Shown here: piece after piece, positions 3,939 through 24,938 of the stretch | How positions within the stretch are numbered: position 1 is the first letter of the stretch | Layout: each line of letters opens with the position of its first letter | Assembly (NCBI GenBank): GCA_034432775.1 | Contig: DAOUBH010000019.1 | Span: forward strand, 9,719-73,718 | Reading direction: 5' to 3' | DNA: 64,000 bases | From: Chloroflexota bacterium | Lineage (GTDB): Bacteria; Chloroflexota; Chloroflexia; DAOUBH01 | The notes under the pieces: generated by a model | Told to the model about the DNA's origin: nothing | Seen by the model: the letters and a program-made list of their open reading frames with translations, nothing else | Databases searched by the model: none | Position numbers and translations under genes: made by a program

Positions 3939-4724
3939 TCACCTACCTTTGAACTGGGGTCTTCGTTTCTCAAGGAACGCGCTGGTGCCTTCCACTCTAT
4001 CCTCTGTAGTAGCCACTAGGCCGAAGGCCTGGGCTTCGAAGGCATTGGCATCGTCCAGAGGCATTTCCAGACCTCTGTTGACAGCCTCTTTGATAAGCGC
4101 TAAGGCAACAGGGGCCTTGGAAGCAATATTTTGAGCCAGCGCTTTGACCTGATCCATCAGTTCGGCAGCAGGCACGACCTTATCGACCAGGCCCAGTCTA
4201 TAGGCCTCGTTGGCATCCACCATTTCTCCCGTGAAGAGGAGCAATTTGGCCCTGCCCCCTCCGACGAGCCTAGGGAGCCTCTGGGTACCACCATAGCCAG
4301 GAAGTATACCCAGGTTTATCTCGGGTTGGCCCAACTTCGCAGTATCCGCCGCAACACGAATGTCGCATGCCATAGCGATTTCACACCCTCCCCCGAGGGC
4401 ATAACCGTTGATGGCCGCAATTACTGGTTTTGGAAGCATCTCGATCCTGCGCAGCACCCGTTGCCCTTCTGCCGCCTTCCTCCGGGCCTCCTGGGCAGTC
4501 TTCAAAGCCCTCAGCTCGTTTATGTCGGCTCCCGAGACGAAAGCTTTAGGGCCTGCCCCGGTGATGACTATCACCCTGACGTCAGGATCATTTCCCAGCT
4601 CCACCAGGGCAGTATCTATCTCCCTTACCGTTTGGTCGTTTAAGGCATTTAGCACCTGAGGTCTGTTTATAGTTATTATCCCGATCGGTCCATCGCGTTC
4701 GACGATCAGGTTTTCATATGCCAT
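3939..4724 (-). CDS. Enoyl-CoA hydratase (crotonase)
   Basis: AFVSGADI, GYALGGGCE and GQPEINLGILPGYGG motifs with both catalytic Glu residues. Confidence 0.95.
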   Translation of the reverse strand: MAYENLIVERDGPIGIITINRPQVLNALNDQTVREIDTALVELGNDPDVRVIVITGAGPKAFVSGADINELRALKTAQEARRKAAEGQRVLRRIEMLPKPVIAAINGYALGGGCEIAMACDIRVAADTAKLGQPEINLGILPGYGGTQRLPRLVGGGRAKLLLFTGEMVDANEAYRLGLVDKVVPAAELMDQVKALAQNIASKAPVALALIKEAVNRGLEMPLDDANAFEAQAFGLVATTEDRVEGTSAFLEKRRPQFKGR

Positions 4725-4739
4725 TGCGTCGTACCTCCA

Positions 4740-5600
4740 TCAACCAGTAGTGTAATCGTAAAAGCCCTTGCCAGTCTTTCGGCCCAGACGGCCGGAAACC
4801 ACCATACGCTTGAGGAGCGGAGGGGGAGCGAAGCGAGGGTCCTTGAATTCCTCATAGAGGACATTGGCAATGTAATACACGGTGTCAATCCCGATGAAGT
4901 CCATTAGCGTGAACGGACCCATGGGATGCCCCAAACCAAGAGTGATGGCCTGATCGATGTCTGCCCTGCTGGCCACGCCCGACTCGAGGGCCCTTACAGC
5001 CTCCATCAAAAAGCTCAAGAGCAAGAGGTTAACTATAAAACCCGGGCTGTCCTTGCTGACAACCACTTTCTTGCCAAGGCTCTCCGCAAAGGCCCTGGCC
5101 GTCTCGAAGATAGCTGGATCTACAAGCTCGGTACGTACCAGTTCCACGAGCTTCATTACTGGTACTGGATTGAAGAAGTGGATCCCTAGAAAGCGTTCGG
5201 GCCTGCGCGTGCTGGCGGCCATCTCTGTCACCGAGAGAGACGATGTGTTGGTAGCGAATATTGTGTCCGGAGGACATATCCCATCCAAGCGCTGAAATAC
5301 CCTCTTTTTCTCGTTCATGAGCTCTATCACAGCTTCGATGACCAGGTCTCTGTCGGCGAAATCCCCGAGATCCGTGGTACCCTTTATGCGCGAAAGCGCT
5401 TCCTCTGCCTGCTGCTGAGAAAGCTTCGACCTTTCCACAGCCTTCCCCAGGGAGCTGCGGATTCGGTGCAGGCCGCGATCGAGAGTAGCCTGGTCAATCT
5501 CCACGACCAGAACATCGTATCCTGACACTGCACAGGTCTCGGCAATGCCCGACCCCATCTGTCCACAACCCACAACCCCAACCTTCCTTATAACTGACAT
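4740..5600 (-). CDS. 3-hydroxybutyryl-CoA / 3-hydroxyacyl-CoA dehydrogenase
   Basis: GCGQMGSGIA Rossmann motif, EAVIE, TNTSS, GIHFFNP, HPMGP, GRKTGKGFY. Confidence 0.95.
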   Translation of the reverse strand: MSVIRKVGVVGCGQMGSGIAETCAVSGYDVLVVEIDQATLDRGLHRIRSSLGKAVERSKLSQQQAEEALSRIKGTTDLGDFADRDLVIEAVIELMNEKKRVFQRLDGICPPDTIFATNTSSLSVTEMAASTRRPERFLGIHFFNPVPVMKLVELVRTELVDPAIFETARAFAESLGKKVVVSKDSPGFIVNLLLLSFLMEAVRALESGVASRADIDQAITLGLGHPMGPFTLMDFIGIDTVYYIANVLYEEFKDPRFAPPPLLKRMVVSGRLGRKTGKGFYDYTTG

Positions 5601-5622: not shown

Positions 5623-5631
5623 TGCTATAAT
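5623..5631 (+). promoter_or_regulatory. Extended -10 promoter (TGcTATAAT) for the small basic ORF
   Basis: TG at 5623-5624 and TATAAT at 5626-5631, 40 nt upstream of ATG 5672. Confidence 0.65.
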
Positions 5632-5671
5632 ACACCCTTCGGTAGGGGAAAACAAAGTCTGGGAGGGAATT

Positions 5672-5767
5672 ATGAACAAGAGGAAAAAGATGGCCTGGCG
5701 CAAGCATCGCATGAAGGCAAAGAAGACGAAGGAAAAGCGCAAGGCAGGGACGCCGCCCAAAGATTAA
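5672..5767 (+). CDS. 31-aa Lys/Arg-rich small protein MNKRKKMAWRKHRMKAKKTKEKRKAGTPPKD (below the ORF-track cutoff)
   Basis: GGAGG SD 5 nt before the ATG, extended -10 promoter upstream, TAA stop, and it fills the gap between acd and hbd on the opposite strand. Confidence 0.7.
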   Translation: MNKRKKMAWRKHRMKAKKTKEKRKAGTPPKD

Positions 5768-5770
5768 CCC

Positions 5771-6943
5771 TCAGTCTCGGCTCAGCACCATGGGCAGGTC
5801 AAGCCCGGATAGGGCCCTAGCGATAACTACCCTCTGTATCTGATTCGTGCCTTCGAAGATGGCAAATACCACGGCATCGCGCATCATGCGTTCTACCTTG
5901 TAATCCCGAATGAAGCCGTAGCCCCCAAGCACCTGGACCGCATTGAGGCTGACACGCCTGACCATTTCTGTAGCATAAAACTTGGCCATGGACGCGAACT
6001 TGGTTACATCGGGGGCACCTTCATCGTACTTGGTAGCGGCAACGTACGTAAGGTATCGGGCCGCCTGGATCTCGGTCTCCATTTCAGCCAGGAGAGCCTG
6101 GATAGCTTGATGGTAAATGATTGGTCTACCAAACTGCACTCGCGTCTTCGCGTATTCCAGGGCCGCATCGAGAGCGCCCTGGGCAATGCCAACTGCTTGG
6201 GCAGCCACACTGGGCCTTCCCTTGTCCAGGTTGCCAAGGGCTACGCGAAACCCATTTCCCAGGCCCCCCAGAACGTTCTCCTGTGGGACCCTCACGTTAT
6301 CGTACATCATCATGCAGGTGGGAGAACCTTTAAGTCCCATCTTTTCCTCGACTTTGGCCGTGATTACCCCGGGCCAGTCGGATTCAACAATGAAGGCAGT
6401 GGGCTTACCTCTGGCATCACTACCGTCAAAGACCTTGGCGAAGACAACATGCACCTTGGCAACATTGCCTTGGGTGCAGAAAACCTTCGTGCCATTGAGA
6501 ATATAGTGATCCCCATTGGGCACCGCCCTGGTCTCTATAGCGGTGACATCGGAGCCTGCCGCAGGCTCGCTGAGCGCGAAGGCAGGCAGCCATTCCCCAG
6601 TGGCCAATTTGGGCAGGTACTTCCGTTTCTGCTCCTCGGTCCCCCATTTCACGATGGGGCCTGACCCCAAAGCATGAGTTCCGAGGATCATGGACGAACT
6701 CGCGCAAACCCTTGCGATCTCCTCGATGACAAGGCAGTGGGTCAGAAGGGATGCTCCCATCCCGCCGTACTCCTCGGGGATAGGGATCGCCAAAATATCG
6801 TTTTCGGCGAAGAGTTTCGCTACATCCCACGGGAACTCGCCCTTCTTGTCTATCTCCTCGGCCCTGGGAGCAACCTTCTCCTCCATCATCTCTCGAACAG
6901 CCTGCTTCATCATCTGTTGCTCTTCGGTCAGCTTAAAATCCAT
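5771..6943 (-). CDS. Acyl-CoA dehydrogenase
   Basis: FALSEPAAGSD, LNGTKVF, RVQFGRPI, GGYGFIRDY, IFEGTNQIQR (catalytic Glu). Confidence 0.95.
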   Translation of the reverse strand: MDFKLTEEQQMMKQAVREMMEEKVAPRAEEIDKKGEFPWDVAKLFAENDILAIPIPEEYGGMGASLLTHCLVIEEIARVCASSSMILGTHALGSGPIVKWGTEEQKRKYLPKLATGEWLPAFALSEPAAGSDVTAIETRAVPNGDHYILNGTKVFCTQGNVAKVHVVFAKVFDGSDARGKPTAFIVESDWPGVITAKVEEKMGLKGSPTCMMMYDNVRVPQENVLGGLGNGFRVALGNLDKGRPSVAAQAVGIAQGALDAALEYAKTRVQFGRPIIYHQAIQALLAEMETEIQAARYLTYVAATKYDEGAPDVTKFASMAKFYATEMVRRVSLNAVQVLGGYGFIRDYKVERMMRDAVVFAIFEGTNQIQRVVIARALSGLDLPMVLSRD

Positions 6944-6953
6944 GGTTCCCTCC

Positions 6954-9059
6954 TTAGCTTCGGGTGAGGGTCTTAGAGATCACCATAAGAGCATCCACCA
7001 CCGCTGCTCCATCTGGATAGGCAATCACCGGGTTTAGGTCTATCTCTTCTATTTCGGGGTTAGCCAGCATCGCCCGACATACCACCGTAACCAGGCGGCC
7101 AAGGGCCTGCCTGTTTACACCCTCACGTCCCCGGAAGCCCTCCAGCAGCGCCCTTCCCCGGAGCCGGGCTATCATCTGATCCACCTGCTCCTCATCTACG
7201 GGACATAGCTCTATAGCTACGTCATGGAATACTTCGGTCCACACACCGCCCAGTCCCAAAGCAACCATGGGTCCGAAGGTCGCGTCCCGCCTCCCGCCGA
7301 CAATCAACTCCACGCCAGGCGGCGCCATGCGCTGTACCACGTAGGTTCTGCCAGCACCCAAGCGCCCTTCTAGGGCAACCCAAGCCCTTCTCATTCCTTC
7401 CGGATCGTCTATCCCCAGCTCCAATGCCGCCAGTTCGGTCTTATGGGCTACACCATCTTCGCATAGCTTTAAAGCGACAGGGTAGCCTACCTCAGCAGCA
7501 GCCAACAAGGCATCCGTTAAGCTGTGAACGCGCCTTTCCTTCGGTGCCTCCATGCCATATTCAGCAAGCACCAACTTGGCGTCATGCTCGTTTACAACCG
7601 TCACACCCCTAGCTACCAAAGCCGATAGCCTGTTCGAGCGTTGTAGGTCGGGGCTAACAACGACCTTCCGCTGCGACATCCTTGATCTCTGCCGCAATAC
7701 GAGGCCTCTGTAGGCCCATACAGCACGCTCTGGCCCAGGGAAGTTTGGAATACCTGAATCGCGTAGCAGTCCAGTCACCGTAGGGTTGTCCACCGTAAAC
7801 GCCAAAATCGGCTTGCAATGTTTCTCTTTGGCAGCAGCGAGGCCATGGGCGAACTGGGCCACATCCAAACCCACATTGATGGCGATTATCCCGTCCACGT
7901 TAGGATCGGCTGCCACAGCGTCGATGCAGGCACCGTAGTTTTCTGGCGGCATCTGCGGGGTCATGTCCACAGGATTCCCGCTGGCCGCAAAAGATGGCAT
8001 CAACTCCCTTATCCGGTTTACGGTGCTTTCTTCTAACGTGGAGAGCTCAAGCCCTGCTTCCTCGCAGGTATCTGCTGCCACCACGCTGGGGCCTCCCGAA
8101 ATGGTGAGGACCACAACTCGATTGCTTTTAGGTAGGTTGCCACCCCAGGCTGACAGTGCTACAGTGACATCGAACAGTTCTGAACTGTTGTTAACCCACA
8201 CGATGCCCGCCCGTCGAAACGCCGCCTCGTAGGCCTCGGTTTGCCCTGCCATGGAGCCTGTGTGTGATGAAGCTGCCCGTGTCCCTGCCCTCGTCCTACC
8301 ACCCTTGAGGACCACAACCGCTTTCCTTGCGGTGGCCCTCTGGGCAGCCTCCAGAAAACGTCGGCCGTCACCAACGCCTTCCACGAACATGGCGATCACG
8401 CCCGTTTCAGGATCATCGGCCAAGTAATCTAGCAGGTCGGCGTAATCTACATCGATCATGTTCCCGATGCTTACAAACTTCGATATGCCCAACTGGCGCT
8501 CCCTCATTTCGCGGAAGAAGAGGCCGCCAAAGGCACCACTCTGGGAAATGAAGCTGATGTTTCCTGCGACCTTCGGCAACTCCCAGAAATAAGTGCCATT
8601 CAGATTGCCGGACAGATTGTAGATACCCATGCAGTTGGGGCCGACAAGGCGCATTCCAGCCTCCCGGGCCACGCGTCGCATTCGATCCTCGACAGCCTTT
8701 CCCTCTGGACCTGTCTCGCCAAAGCCCGAGCTCAGGATGACACCTGCAGGGACACCCAAACTGGCTGCCTCCTCTACCACTTCCGGGACGGCTGCCGCCG
8801 GCACACTTATTAGGACCAGATCTACAGGTTCAGGGATATGACTCAGGCCTGGGTACACCTTCAGTCCAAAGATCTCGCCACCGGAAGGGTTGACAGGGTA
8901 GATACGGCCGCGGAACCCGTAGTCCACCACGTTTTTCAGAAGTACGTAACCCAGTTTGCCGGGCTTGGGCGACGCGCCCACTACAGCTATGCTCGATGGA
9001 CGGAACAGAGAATCCAGTCCCCTCGCGTCACTATCGGGTCCAGAGCTGACGGCGACCAT
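6954..9059 (-). CDS. ADP-forming acyl-CoA synthetase, fused alpha-beta (acetate--CoA ligase family)
   Basis: CoA-binding N-terminus (SIAVVGAS), GPNCMG, SQSG, phospho-His motif SHTGS, NPVD, and a C-terminal ATP-grasp (ELIVGG, DLNP). Confidence 0.9.
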   Translation of the reverse strand: MVAVSSGPDSDARGLDSLFRPSSIAVVGASPKPGKLGYVLLKNVVDYGFRGRIYPVNPSGGEIFGLKVYPGLSHIPEPVDLVLISVPAAAVPEVVEEAASLGVPAGVILSSGFGETGPEGKAVEDRMRRVAREAGMRLVGPNCMGIYNLSGNLNGTYFWELPKVAGNISFISQSGAFGGLFFREMRERQLGISKFVSIGNMIDVDYADLLDYLADDPETGVIAMFVEGVGDGRRFLEAAQRATARKAVVVLKGGRTRAGTRAASSHTGSMAGQTEAYEAAFRRAGIVWVNNSSELFDVTVALSAWGGNLPKSNRVVVLTISGGPSVVAADTCEEAGLELSTLEESTVNRIRELMPSFAASGNPVDMTPQMPPENYGACIDAVAADPNVDGIIAINVGLDVAQFAHGLAAAKEKHCKPILAFTVDNPTVTGLLRDSGIPNFPGPERAVWAYRGLVLRQRSRMSQRKVVVSPDLQRSNRLSALVARGVTVVNEHDAKLVLAEYGMEAPKERRVHSLTDALLAAAEVGYPVALKLCEDGVAHKTELAALELGIDDPEGMRRAWVALEGRLGAGRTYVVQRMAPPGVELIVGGRRDATFGPMVALGLGGVWTEVFHDVAIELCPVDEEQVDQMIARLRGRALLEGFRGREGVNRQALGRLVTVVCRAMLANPEIEEIDLNPVIAYPDGAAVVDALMVISKTLTRS

Positions 9060-24068: not shown

Positions 24069-24938
24069 CTACGAACCCTTTGTGTAATCGTAGAAGCCTC
24101 TCCGGGTCTTCCTCCCCAGCCTGCCAGAACGAACCATCTGAGTAAGAAGGTAACTCGGCCTGTATTTGGGATCACCGAATTCTTGCATCATGTAGGTCAT
24201 GTTTTCCCAAACGATGCCCACGCCGTTGGTGTAGTCGGCAAGCTCCAACGGACCCATGGGATGCCCGAGGCCCAGTTTGATGGCCTTGTCGATATCCTCG
24301 GCACTTGCTATGCCCTCGGCCAGCATGCAAGCAGCCTCGTTTATGATCACCGATACCATGCGGCTGGTTATAAAACCCGGCGTGTCTTTTATGACCACCG
24401 TCTCCTTGCCCAGCCGTGCGGACAACGCCTTGATGGTCTCTACTGTGTCTTCGTCGGTCTGAGCACCCCGCACGATCTCAACTAGCCGCATTACGGCTAC
24501 AGGGTTGAAGAAGTGCATCCCGATAACCTTGTGGGGACGGCGGGTGGCCGAAGAAATGTCAGTTATGCTCAGGGCCGACGTGTTGCTAGCCAAAATGGTG
24601 TCTGGACGGGTCAGCCGATCTAGGTCGGCGAAGAGAACTTTCTTCAAATCCATTTTCTCAGGTATGGACTCTATCACGAGATCCACATCGCCCACAGCCT
24701 CTTCTAGGGACAGGTAACCACGGAGTCGCCCCATGACCTGGACCGCCTCCTCGGCAGTCATCTTGCCCTTCTCCACGAAAAACTTGCTGAGGTTGTCGGA
24801 TATCCCCTTCAAAGCCCTGTCCAGCAGCACCTGATCGACATCCCTCAGGCTGACCGTAAGGCCTGCCATAGCCATGACTTGGGCGATCTGGCTGCCCATA
24901 ACGCCGGCGCCGACTACGGCAACTCTATTGACTTGCAT
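24069..24938 (-). CDS. 3-hydroxyacyl-CoA dehydrogenase (second paralog)
   Basis: GAGVMGSQIA, ESIPE, SNTS, GMHFFNP, HPMGP, GRKTRRGFY. Confidence 0.95.
   Translation of the reverse strand: MQVNRVAVVGAGVMGSQIAQVMAMAGLTVSLRDVDQVLLDRALKGISDNLSKFFVEKGKMTAEEAVQVMGRLRGYLSLEEAVGDVDLVIESIPEKMDLKKVLFADLDRLTRPDTILASNTSALSITDISSATRRPHKVIGMHFFNPVAVMRLVEIVRGAQTDEDTVETIKALSARLGKETVVIKDTPGFITSRMVSVIINEAACMLAEGIASAEDIDKAIKLGLGHPMGPLELADYTNGVGIVWENMTYMMQEFGDPKYRPSYLLTQMVRSGRLGRKTRRGFYDYTKGS

Follow-up and report, generated by a model that had tools for sequence, protein, structure and literature searches.

A conserved small basic protein gene of Chloroflexota, possibly encoding a divergent relative of ribosomal protein bS22

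Ribosomal micro-proteins, at about 30 residues, routinely escape annotation, and to our knowledge they have been found so far only by cryo-EM, in mycobacteria, Bacteroidota, and Borrelia. One of them, bS22, is a helix described as bent, and the small-subunit pocket that it fills is occupied by mS38 (AURKAIP1/Cox24) in mitochondria and by eL41/eS32 in eukaryotes; in E. coli it is not known to have an occupant. The genes for bS22 are typically unannotated and free-standing, and may begin with a non-ATG codon (GTG); the helix sits in the h2/h27/h44/h45/H68 pocket, and the authors who described these genes anticipated that further examples would be found (PMC10618245). bS22 is reported to lie beside helix 44, affecting aminoglycoside access in mycobacteria (bioRxiv 10.1101/2023.03.31.535098).

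The gene considered here lies in a stretch of 64,000 nucleotides, which we call the window, from a contig of a Chloroflexota bacterium (DAOUBH010000019.1). An earlier sequence-only reading of this DNA remarked that the composition of the gene's 31-residue product recalls bS22, mS38, or eL41, or else nucleic-acid-binding peptides. We have followed the gene through the phylum and compared the resulting family with these proteins.

A small basic gene between acd and hbd

The minus-strand genes hbd and acd are separated by a gap of 170 nt, most of which is filled by the 31-residue open reading frame on the opposite strand. The features of the locus are as follows.

5672..5767, plus strand: gene for a 31-residue basic protein, ATG at 5672 and TAA at 5765-5767, product MNKRKKMAWRKHRMKAKKTKEKRKAGTPPKD
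5672..5749, plus strand: conserved module (codons 1-26), a predicted single alpha-helix bearing the family motif
5750..5764, plus strand: short variable tail GTPPKD, in place of which relatives have other tails
5623..5631, plus strand: extended -10 element TGcTATAAT with no recognisable -35, read from the sequence
5661..5667, plus strand: Shine-Dalgarno sequence GGGAGGG, 4 nt before the ATG, read from the sequence
4740..5600, minus strand: hbd, 3-hydroxyacyl-CoA dehydrogenase (3HCDH, Pfam)
5771..6943, minus strand: acd, acyl-CoA dehydrogenase (ACAD, Pfam), convergent with the small gene
3939..4724, minus strand: enoyl-CoA hydratase (ECH, Pfam), beyond hbd
6954..9059, minus strand: ADP-forming acyl-CoA synthetase (Pfam), beyond acd

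Eleven lysines and four arginines account for 15 of the 31 residues (48% Lys/Arg), and the TAA of the small gene is separated by 3 nt from the convergent stop codon of acd (5771-5773, minus strand). The sequence-only reading had drawn attention to both of these points, as well as to the extended -10 element and a GGAGG Shine-Dalgarno sequence, and it described all four correctly. A sigma-70 consensus scan did not list TGcTATAAT at 5623-5631 because the element has no -35 hexamer. Transcription is predicted to begin near 5638, which would leave a leader of about 34 nt. The -10 element is 23-30 nt away from the start of hbd and the GGAGG of that gene, both on the opposite strand. The sole terminator-like site was a weak minus-strand hairpin within the open reading frame, a find at about the chance rate. 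A six-frame search found one copy of the gene in its own genome.

The sequence-only reading also noted that a transcript of the small gene would be antisense to any acd-hbd read-through mRNA. Among relatives of this genome, the hydratase gene follows hbd and acd is not found upstream of it, which makes it probable that acd and hbd are transcribed separately here; the arrangement in relatives suggests that the small gene probably lies at the boundary between the two rather than within an operon. Apparent in-frame stops in homologues of hbd proved to be natural stop codons. Two further 3-hydroxyacyl-CoA dehydrogenase paralogues are encoded by the genome, at 24075-24932 of the window (minus strand) and on a second contig (C17:169108-169953), and they are 47% and 35% identical, respectively, to the hbd product of 4740-5600.

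Conservation, expression signals, and architecture of the family

A profile of the first 27 residues matched 131 of 401 genomes drawn evenly from Chloroflexota, each of them exactly once and none twice; the 130 loci outside the gene's own genome were fetched and their frames read. Open reading frames of the form MNKRKK.A..KHR were found in two other families of the same class when 40 related genomes were searched in six frames. A pattern scan tied to an MNKRK start, in which each bacterial and archaeal species was represented by one genome, gave 43 loci. Apart from one "Proteobacteria" MAG, they are all labelled Chloroflexota (Chloroflexia, Dehalococcoidia, and Ktedonobacteria). Among 1.84 billion protein representatives, 138 clusters (50% identity) matched the profile at E <= 0.001; the viral contigs that we searched contained no relatives. 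Genes of the family are either uncalled in public sources or named "hypothetical protein," and a homologue search with a 40-residue member returned solely entries of that name and no Pfam domain.

The family motif is [M/L/V]-N-K-[RTA]-K-[KR]-V-A-x-x-K-H-[RL], with a near-invariant pattern of N2, K3, K5, a hydrophobic residue at position 7, A8, K11, and H12. Conservation across classes reaches 99% for N2, 100% for K3, A8, and K11, and 95% for H12. The synonymous codons at the invariant residues are all in use (four for A8, four for V7, and two each for N2, K3, K11, and H12), nucleotide diversity at codon positions 1, 2, and 3 is 0.35, 0.38, and 0.60, and the start codon, at one aligned position, is ATG in 82 members, TTG in 27, and GTG in 19. 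The sequence-only reading had proposed a search for the frame across Chloroflexota, and the outcome favors it: the frame is kept in the 131 genomes under constraint at the amino acid level. On these comparisons 5672-5767 is almost certainly a real, conserved protein-coding gene, a member of an unnamed family widespread in the phylum.

Signals for expression accompany the gene in relatives as well. A Shine-Dalgarno core is present at positions -4 to -18 in 65% of the 130 relatives, against 17% of control positions, and the figures become 75% of loci and 18% of controls when a leaderless-type -10 element upstream is counted as an alternative. The latter arrangement is seen in a soil clade of Chloroflexota (loci L021, L023, L025-L027, L031, and L042, with the ATG at locus position 4001, or 659 in L031), where TAGAAT or TACAAT precedes the ATG by 6-16 nt and no Shine-Dalgarno sequence is present. 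This spacing suggests that the mRNAs of the soil clade are leaderless or nearly so. In that clade the hexamer directly precedes the start, whereas in the window a strong Shine-Dalgarno sequence is present and the predicted leader is about 34 nt long.

Only the first 26 residues or so are conserved across the family. From an alignment of 23 members AlphaFold predicts a single helix spanning residues 3-25 (mean pLDDT 86.5, and about 95 over the first 20 residues); as modeled, the functional part of the protein is this N-terminal stretch of about 26 residues, one highly basic alpha-helix. The median member is 39 residues long, and 113 of 130 members have no more than 46 residues and no tail. C-terminal tails range over the family from 0 to about 180-210 residues. 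One Chloroflexia family has a 52-residue form, and Pro/Ala-rich tails of 60-210 residues occur in other lineages (L032, L035, and L148 among them, with tails of up to about 180 residues). In Dehalococcoidia (L039, L043-L049, L051, L053, and L059; L084, L102, L123, L154, and L162), the 26-residue module is followed by a Lys/Ala/Pro-rich tail of 95-130 residues, for whole forms of 120-158 residues. These Dehalococcoidia tails resemble those of histone H1.

The position of the small gene is kept within lineages and differs between them. In the soil clade the gene and glyA are divergent, in Dehalococcoidia it comes after mtnA and MTAP, and in a few genomes it lies upstream of a THEP1 NTPase gene. 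Chlorohelix-like and apparently Ktedonobacteria-like genomes have a hypothetical or TPR protein on one side and hisD or a PucR-type regulator on the other; HTH, hypothetical, and hisD genes are among the neighbors in some lineages. No translation or ribosomal gene stands beside the small gene in the annotated neighborhoods, and the comparison of neighborhoods gave no hint of function.

Two associations were also seen. In 37 genomes (L093 and 36 other loci; L037:3224-3892, for example) the gene directly upstream on the same strand encodes a protein of about 220 residues whose sole recognisable domain is a single TPR repeat. These genomes appear Ktedonobacteria-like and Chlorohelix-like, with a PucR-family regulator downstream, and the linkage may be old. 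In one Dehalococcoidia MAG (L033:91-2417) the small gene falls between two genes for subunits of ADP-forming acetyl-CoA synthetase, and in the window a fused gene of that family (6954-9059) is one gene away from it, an adjacency that may be a coincidence or a remnant of shared ancestry.

Similarity to bS22 and competing explanations

Searches with the established models were silent. Neither PF08213 (COX24_C, the bS22/mS38 domain) nor NF047430 (ribo_bS22) found a match at E <= 10 in a six-frame search of the whole genome, which indicates that this genome has no canonical bS22. An hmmscan of the peptide and 13 relatives against Pfam and NCBIfam assigned them to no family, phmmer with the peptide found nothing among PDB chains, a profile search of PDB chains retrieved no bS22 chain, and a BLASTP comparison of the peptide with M. 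smegmatis bS22 was not significant. The PDB profile search gave only weak hits (E ~0.2) to KAVAIRKHLER, part of a helix in eukaryotic uS15, and these are regarded as chance. A literature search for bS22 in Chloroflexota returned nothing relevant.

We then compared profiles by hhalign, with references checked against PDB chains (M. smegmatis bS22, human eL41, and M. smegmatis bL37) and with additional canonical bS22 sequences from Chloroflexota genomes and Flavobacterium/Borrelia bS22 from the supplement of PMC10618245. Residues 3-22 of the family fall on residues 8-27 of bS22 in 20-21 ungapped columns. Against the PF08213-type profile, the first family profile gave a probability of 74% (P = 2.8e-5), and an unbiased profile built from 144 distinct N-termini gave 60% (P = 8.8e-5). 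As a control, the alignment columns were permuted with composition kept: the real scores of 19.4-21.4 stand against a permutation mean of about 10 (sd 2.2-2.6; z = 4.5), and were reached by 1 of 400 permutations of the first profile and by 0 of 150 of the unbiased one. Flavobacterium/Borrelia bS22 aligns in the same register with a score of 17.3 (z = 3.3), equaled in 1 of 200 permutations. For comparison, the two accepted types of bS22 do no better against each other, with a score of 17.1 (z = 2.5). The same treatment gave 9.7 against a permutation mean of 10.2 for eL41 (z = -0.2) and 6.8 against 8.3 for bL37 (z = -0.7). The likeness to eL41 that the sequence-only reading perceived thus does not extend beyond composition (hhalign z = -0.2). 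Its comparison with bS22 fares better in that an ordered core matches beyond what composition provides, but the curated bS22 models give no match, and the alignment covers about 20 residues of biased composition at an hhalign probability below 75%.

If the family simply replaced bS22, one might look for the two genes in different genomes. A phylum-wide search found canonical bS22 (PF08213) in 85 of the 401 genomes, with the consensus M[GS]SV[IV]KKRRKKMNKHKHRK.LKRERWQRRHG and often a TTG or GTG start (loci L064-L075 come from this search). Both genes are present in 31 genomes, where 27.8 would be expected (odds ratio 1.24, p = 0.44); the distributions of the family and of canonical bS22 are statistically independent, not complementary. 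In several genomes the two lie on one contig (G266 C7 and G131 C2, for example), which excludes artefacts of binning. Both genes are missing from about half of the genomes sampled, so that neither protein is essential in the phylum, and the window's genome has the small gene and no canonical bS22. The 31 genomes with both indicate that the family is not a simple replacement for bS22. One pocket on one ribosome cannot hold both proteins where both are present; in those genomes the family protein must either alternate with bS22 or bind elsewhere. We infer that divergent paralogue or subtype of bS22 is the better description of the family. The general suggestion of the sequence-only reading, a tiny ribosomal or nucleic-acid-binding protein, remains the best-supported one, but the family is not just this phylum's version of bS22.

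Considered together, these comparisons lead us to put at about an even chance the proposal that the family's protein is bS22-like but divergent, and that it binds to rRNA or to the ribosome. The positions that are fixed across classes, the small residue at position 8 included, speak for a single, well-defined binding site with close packing and against a loose attachment to polyanions, whereas the ordered match to the two types of bS22 points to rRNA and a bS22-like mode of binding. By sequence the family would be a distant relative of bS22 and, in effect, a third sequence subtype. We count against this proposal the silence of the curated models, the short and biased alignment, the co-occurrence with canonical bS22, and the lack of translation genes among the neighbors.

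Three other explanations bear consideration. The first, which is possible but to our minds distinctly less probable, is that the protein is a general nucleic-acid-binding polycation (nucleoid-associated, an RNA chaperone, or a condensing protein), and that the resemblance to bS22 is a convergence of Lys/Arg-rich helices. The long Lys/Ala/Pro- or Pro/Ala-rich, histone H1-like tails of several lineages (90-210 residues) would suit such a protein, and so would the presence of canonical bS22 alongside it in 31 genomes, the failure of the curated bS22 models, and the absence of linkage to translation genes. Non-specific polycations tolerate substitution, however, whereas N2, K3, A8, K11, and H12 are 95-100% conserved, and the permutation controls show a match to bS22 in the order of residues, beyond composition, at which the equivalent controls with eL41 and bL37 fail. 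Moreover, the tails that recall histone H1 are missing from the 113 of 130 members that do not exceed 46 residues.

The second explanation, which we consider unlikely, keeps the protein on the ribosome and moves it out of the bS22 pocket, to another rRNA site or to a role as an assembly, hibernation, or stress factor on a subpopulation of ribosomes. A second site, or alternative occupancy, is the easiest explanation of co-occurrence with canonical bS22, and the tails suggest a changed role, in that those of more than 60 residues are commoner in genomes with canonical bS22 (12 of 31) than in genomes that lack it (4 of 99). That association may, however, reflect phylogeny alone, Dehalococcoidia carrying both; the family has no similarity to bL37 or eL41, and no candidate site can be named from the protein sequence. 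As for the third, that the open reading frame is incidental to an RNA that regulates acd or hbd, by antisense action or otherwise, or has no product at all, the gene does lie on the opposite strand between those two genes and its transcript would enter the 3' end of acd, but a frame kept through synonymous changes in more than 130 genomes with differing neighborhoods, no relevant Rfam match, a predicted RNA fold no better than that of shuffles (z = +0.96), and relatives in which acd is not upstream of hbd make this explanation very improbable, and the conservation data bring it close to refuted.

Should the bS22-like proposal be correct, the bare helix would insert into a pocket of rRNA and neutralise phosphate charge there, as bS22 does, with the small residue 8 and the hydrophobic residue 7 packing against RNA and any C-terminal tail pointing to solvent. 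In the present genome, where canonical bS22 is missing, the most probable site would be the bS22 pocket of the 30S subunit, at h2/h27/h44/h45 beside H68. The gene is probably expressed on its own, from the extended -10 promoter and with the strong Shine-Dalgarno sequence, and its location between acd and hbd is probably an accident of gene order with no functional tie to beta-oxidation.

A bolder version of the proposal, which we advance tentatively, is that the family constitutes a third, Chloroflexota-specific subtype of the bS22/mS38/eL41 class at the decoding-centre pocket, and that genomes with both proteins have two kinds of ribosome (alternative occupancy of one pocket) or a second, as yet unseen site for a micro-protein. 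If it is true, the Lys/Ala/Pro tails of Dehalococcoidia would be ribosome-anchored nucleic-acid-binding arms. An unnamed, single-copy relative of bS22 throughout Chloroflexota would mean a new ribosome component for a major environmental phylum and a simple model for annotation pipelines to add. Canonical bS22 co-occurs in about a quarter of the family-bearing genomes, and this overlap is a natural experiment on whether different proteins can serve the same rRNA pocket. Should the protein prove not to be ribosomal, it would still rank among the best-conserved small proteins of the phylum that annotation has missed.

Comparison with known ribosomal micro-proteins

The known micro-proteins differ in how closely the Chloroflexota family resembles them. 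The 24-residue mycobacterial protein bL37, of the large subunit, is alike in size and charge and has no profile similarity to the family. The proteins mS38 and eL41/eS32 are short basic helices in an rRNA pocket, and the family is likewise a short basic helix, as predicted. The long members of the family share with mS38 the combination of a conserved helix and a long extension, although the extension is N-terminal in mS38 and C-terminal in the family; the link to mS38 runs solely through PF08213, which does not match the 31-residue protein.

The two types of bS22 are closer. That of Flavobacterium and Borrelia (PDB 7JIL, 8FMW) has been seen on the ribosome by cryo-EM; this type and the Chloroflexota family have a K-V-A...K core in common and are about 35% identical over 20 residues. 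The mycobacterial type (M. smegmatis and C. acnes; PDB 5O5J, 5O61, 8CRX) is, like the family, about 30 residues long, and both are single, very basic helices (predicted in the case of the family) encoded by a free-standing gene. The family is without the first five residues of bS22, MGSVI, and without its C-terminal RWQRRHG or QRRKLGK; unlike canonical bS22, it has its conserved motif from residue 2 onward, and many of its members are long-tailed. Between these ends the two proteins align in an ungapped core, KRKKMAWRKHRMKAKK of the family on RRKRMSKKKHRKLLRR of bS22, with the common pattern [KR][KR]x[KR]-[VMI]-[AS]-x-x-K-[HKR]-[RK]: in the numbering of the family, a basic run, the hydrophobic V/M7, the small A8, K11, and H12-R13, in that order.
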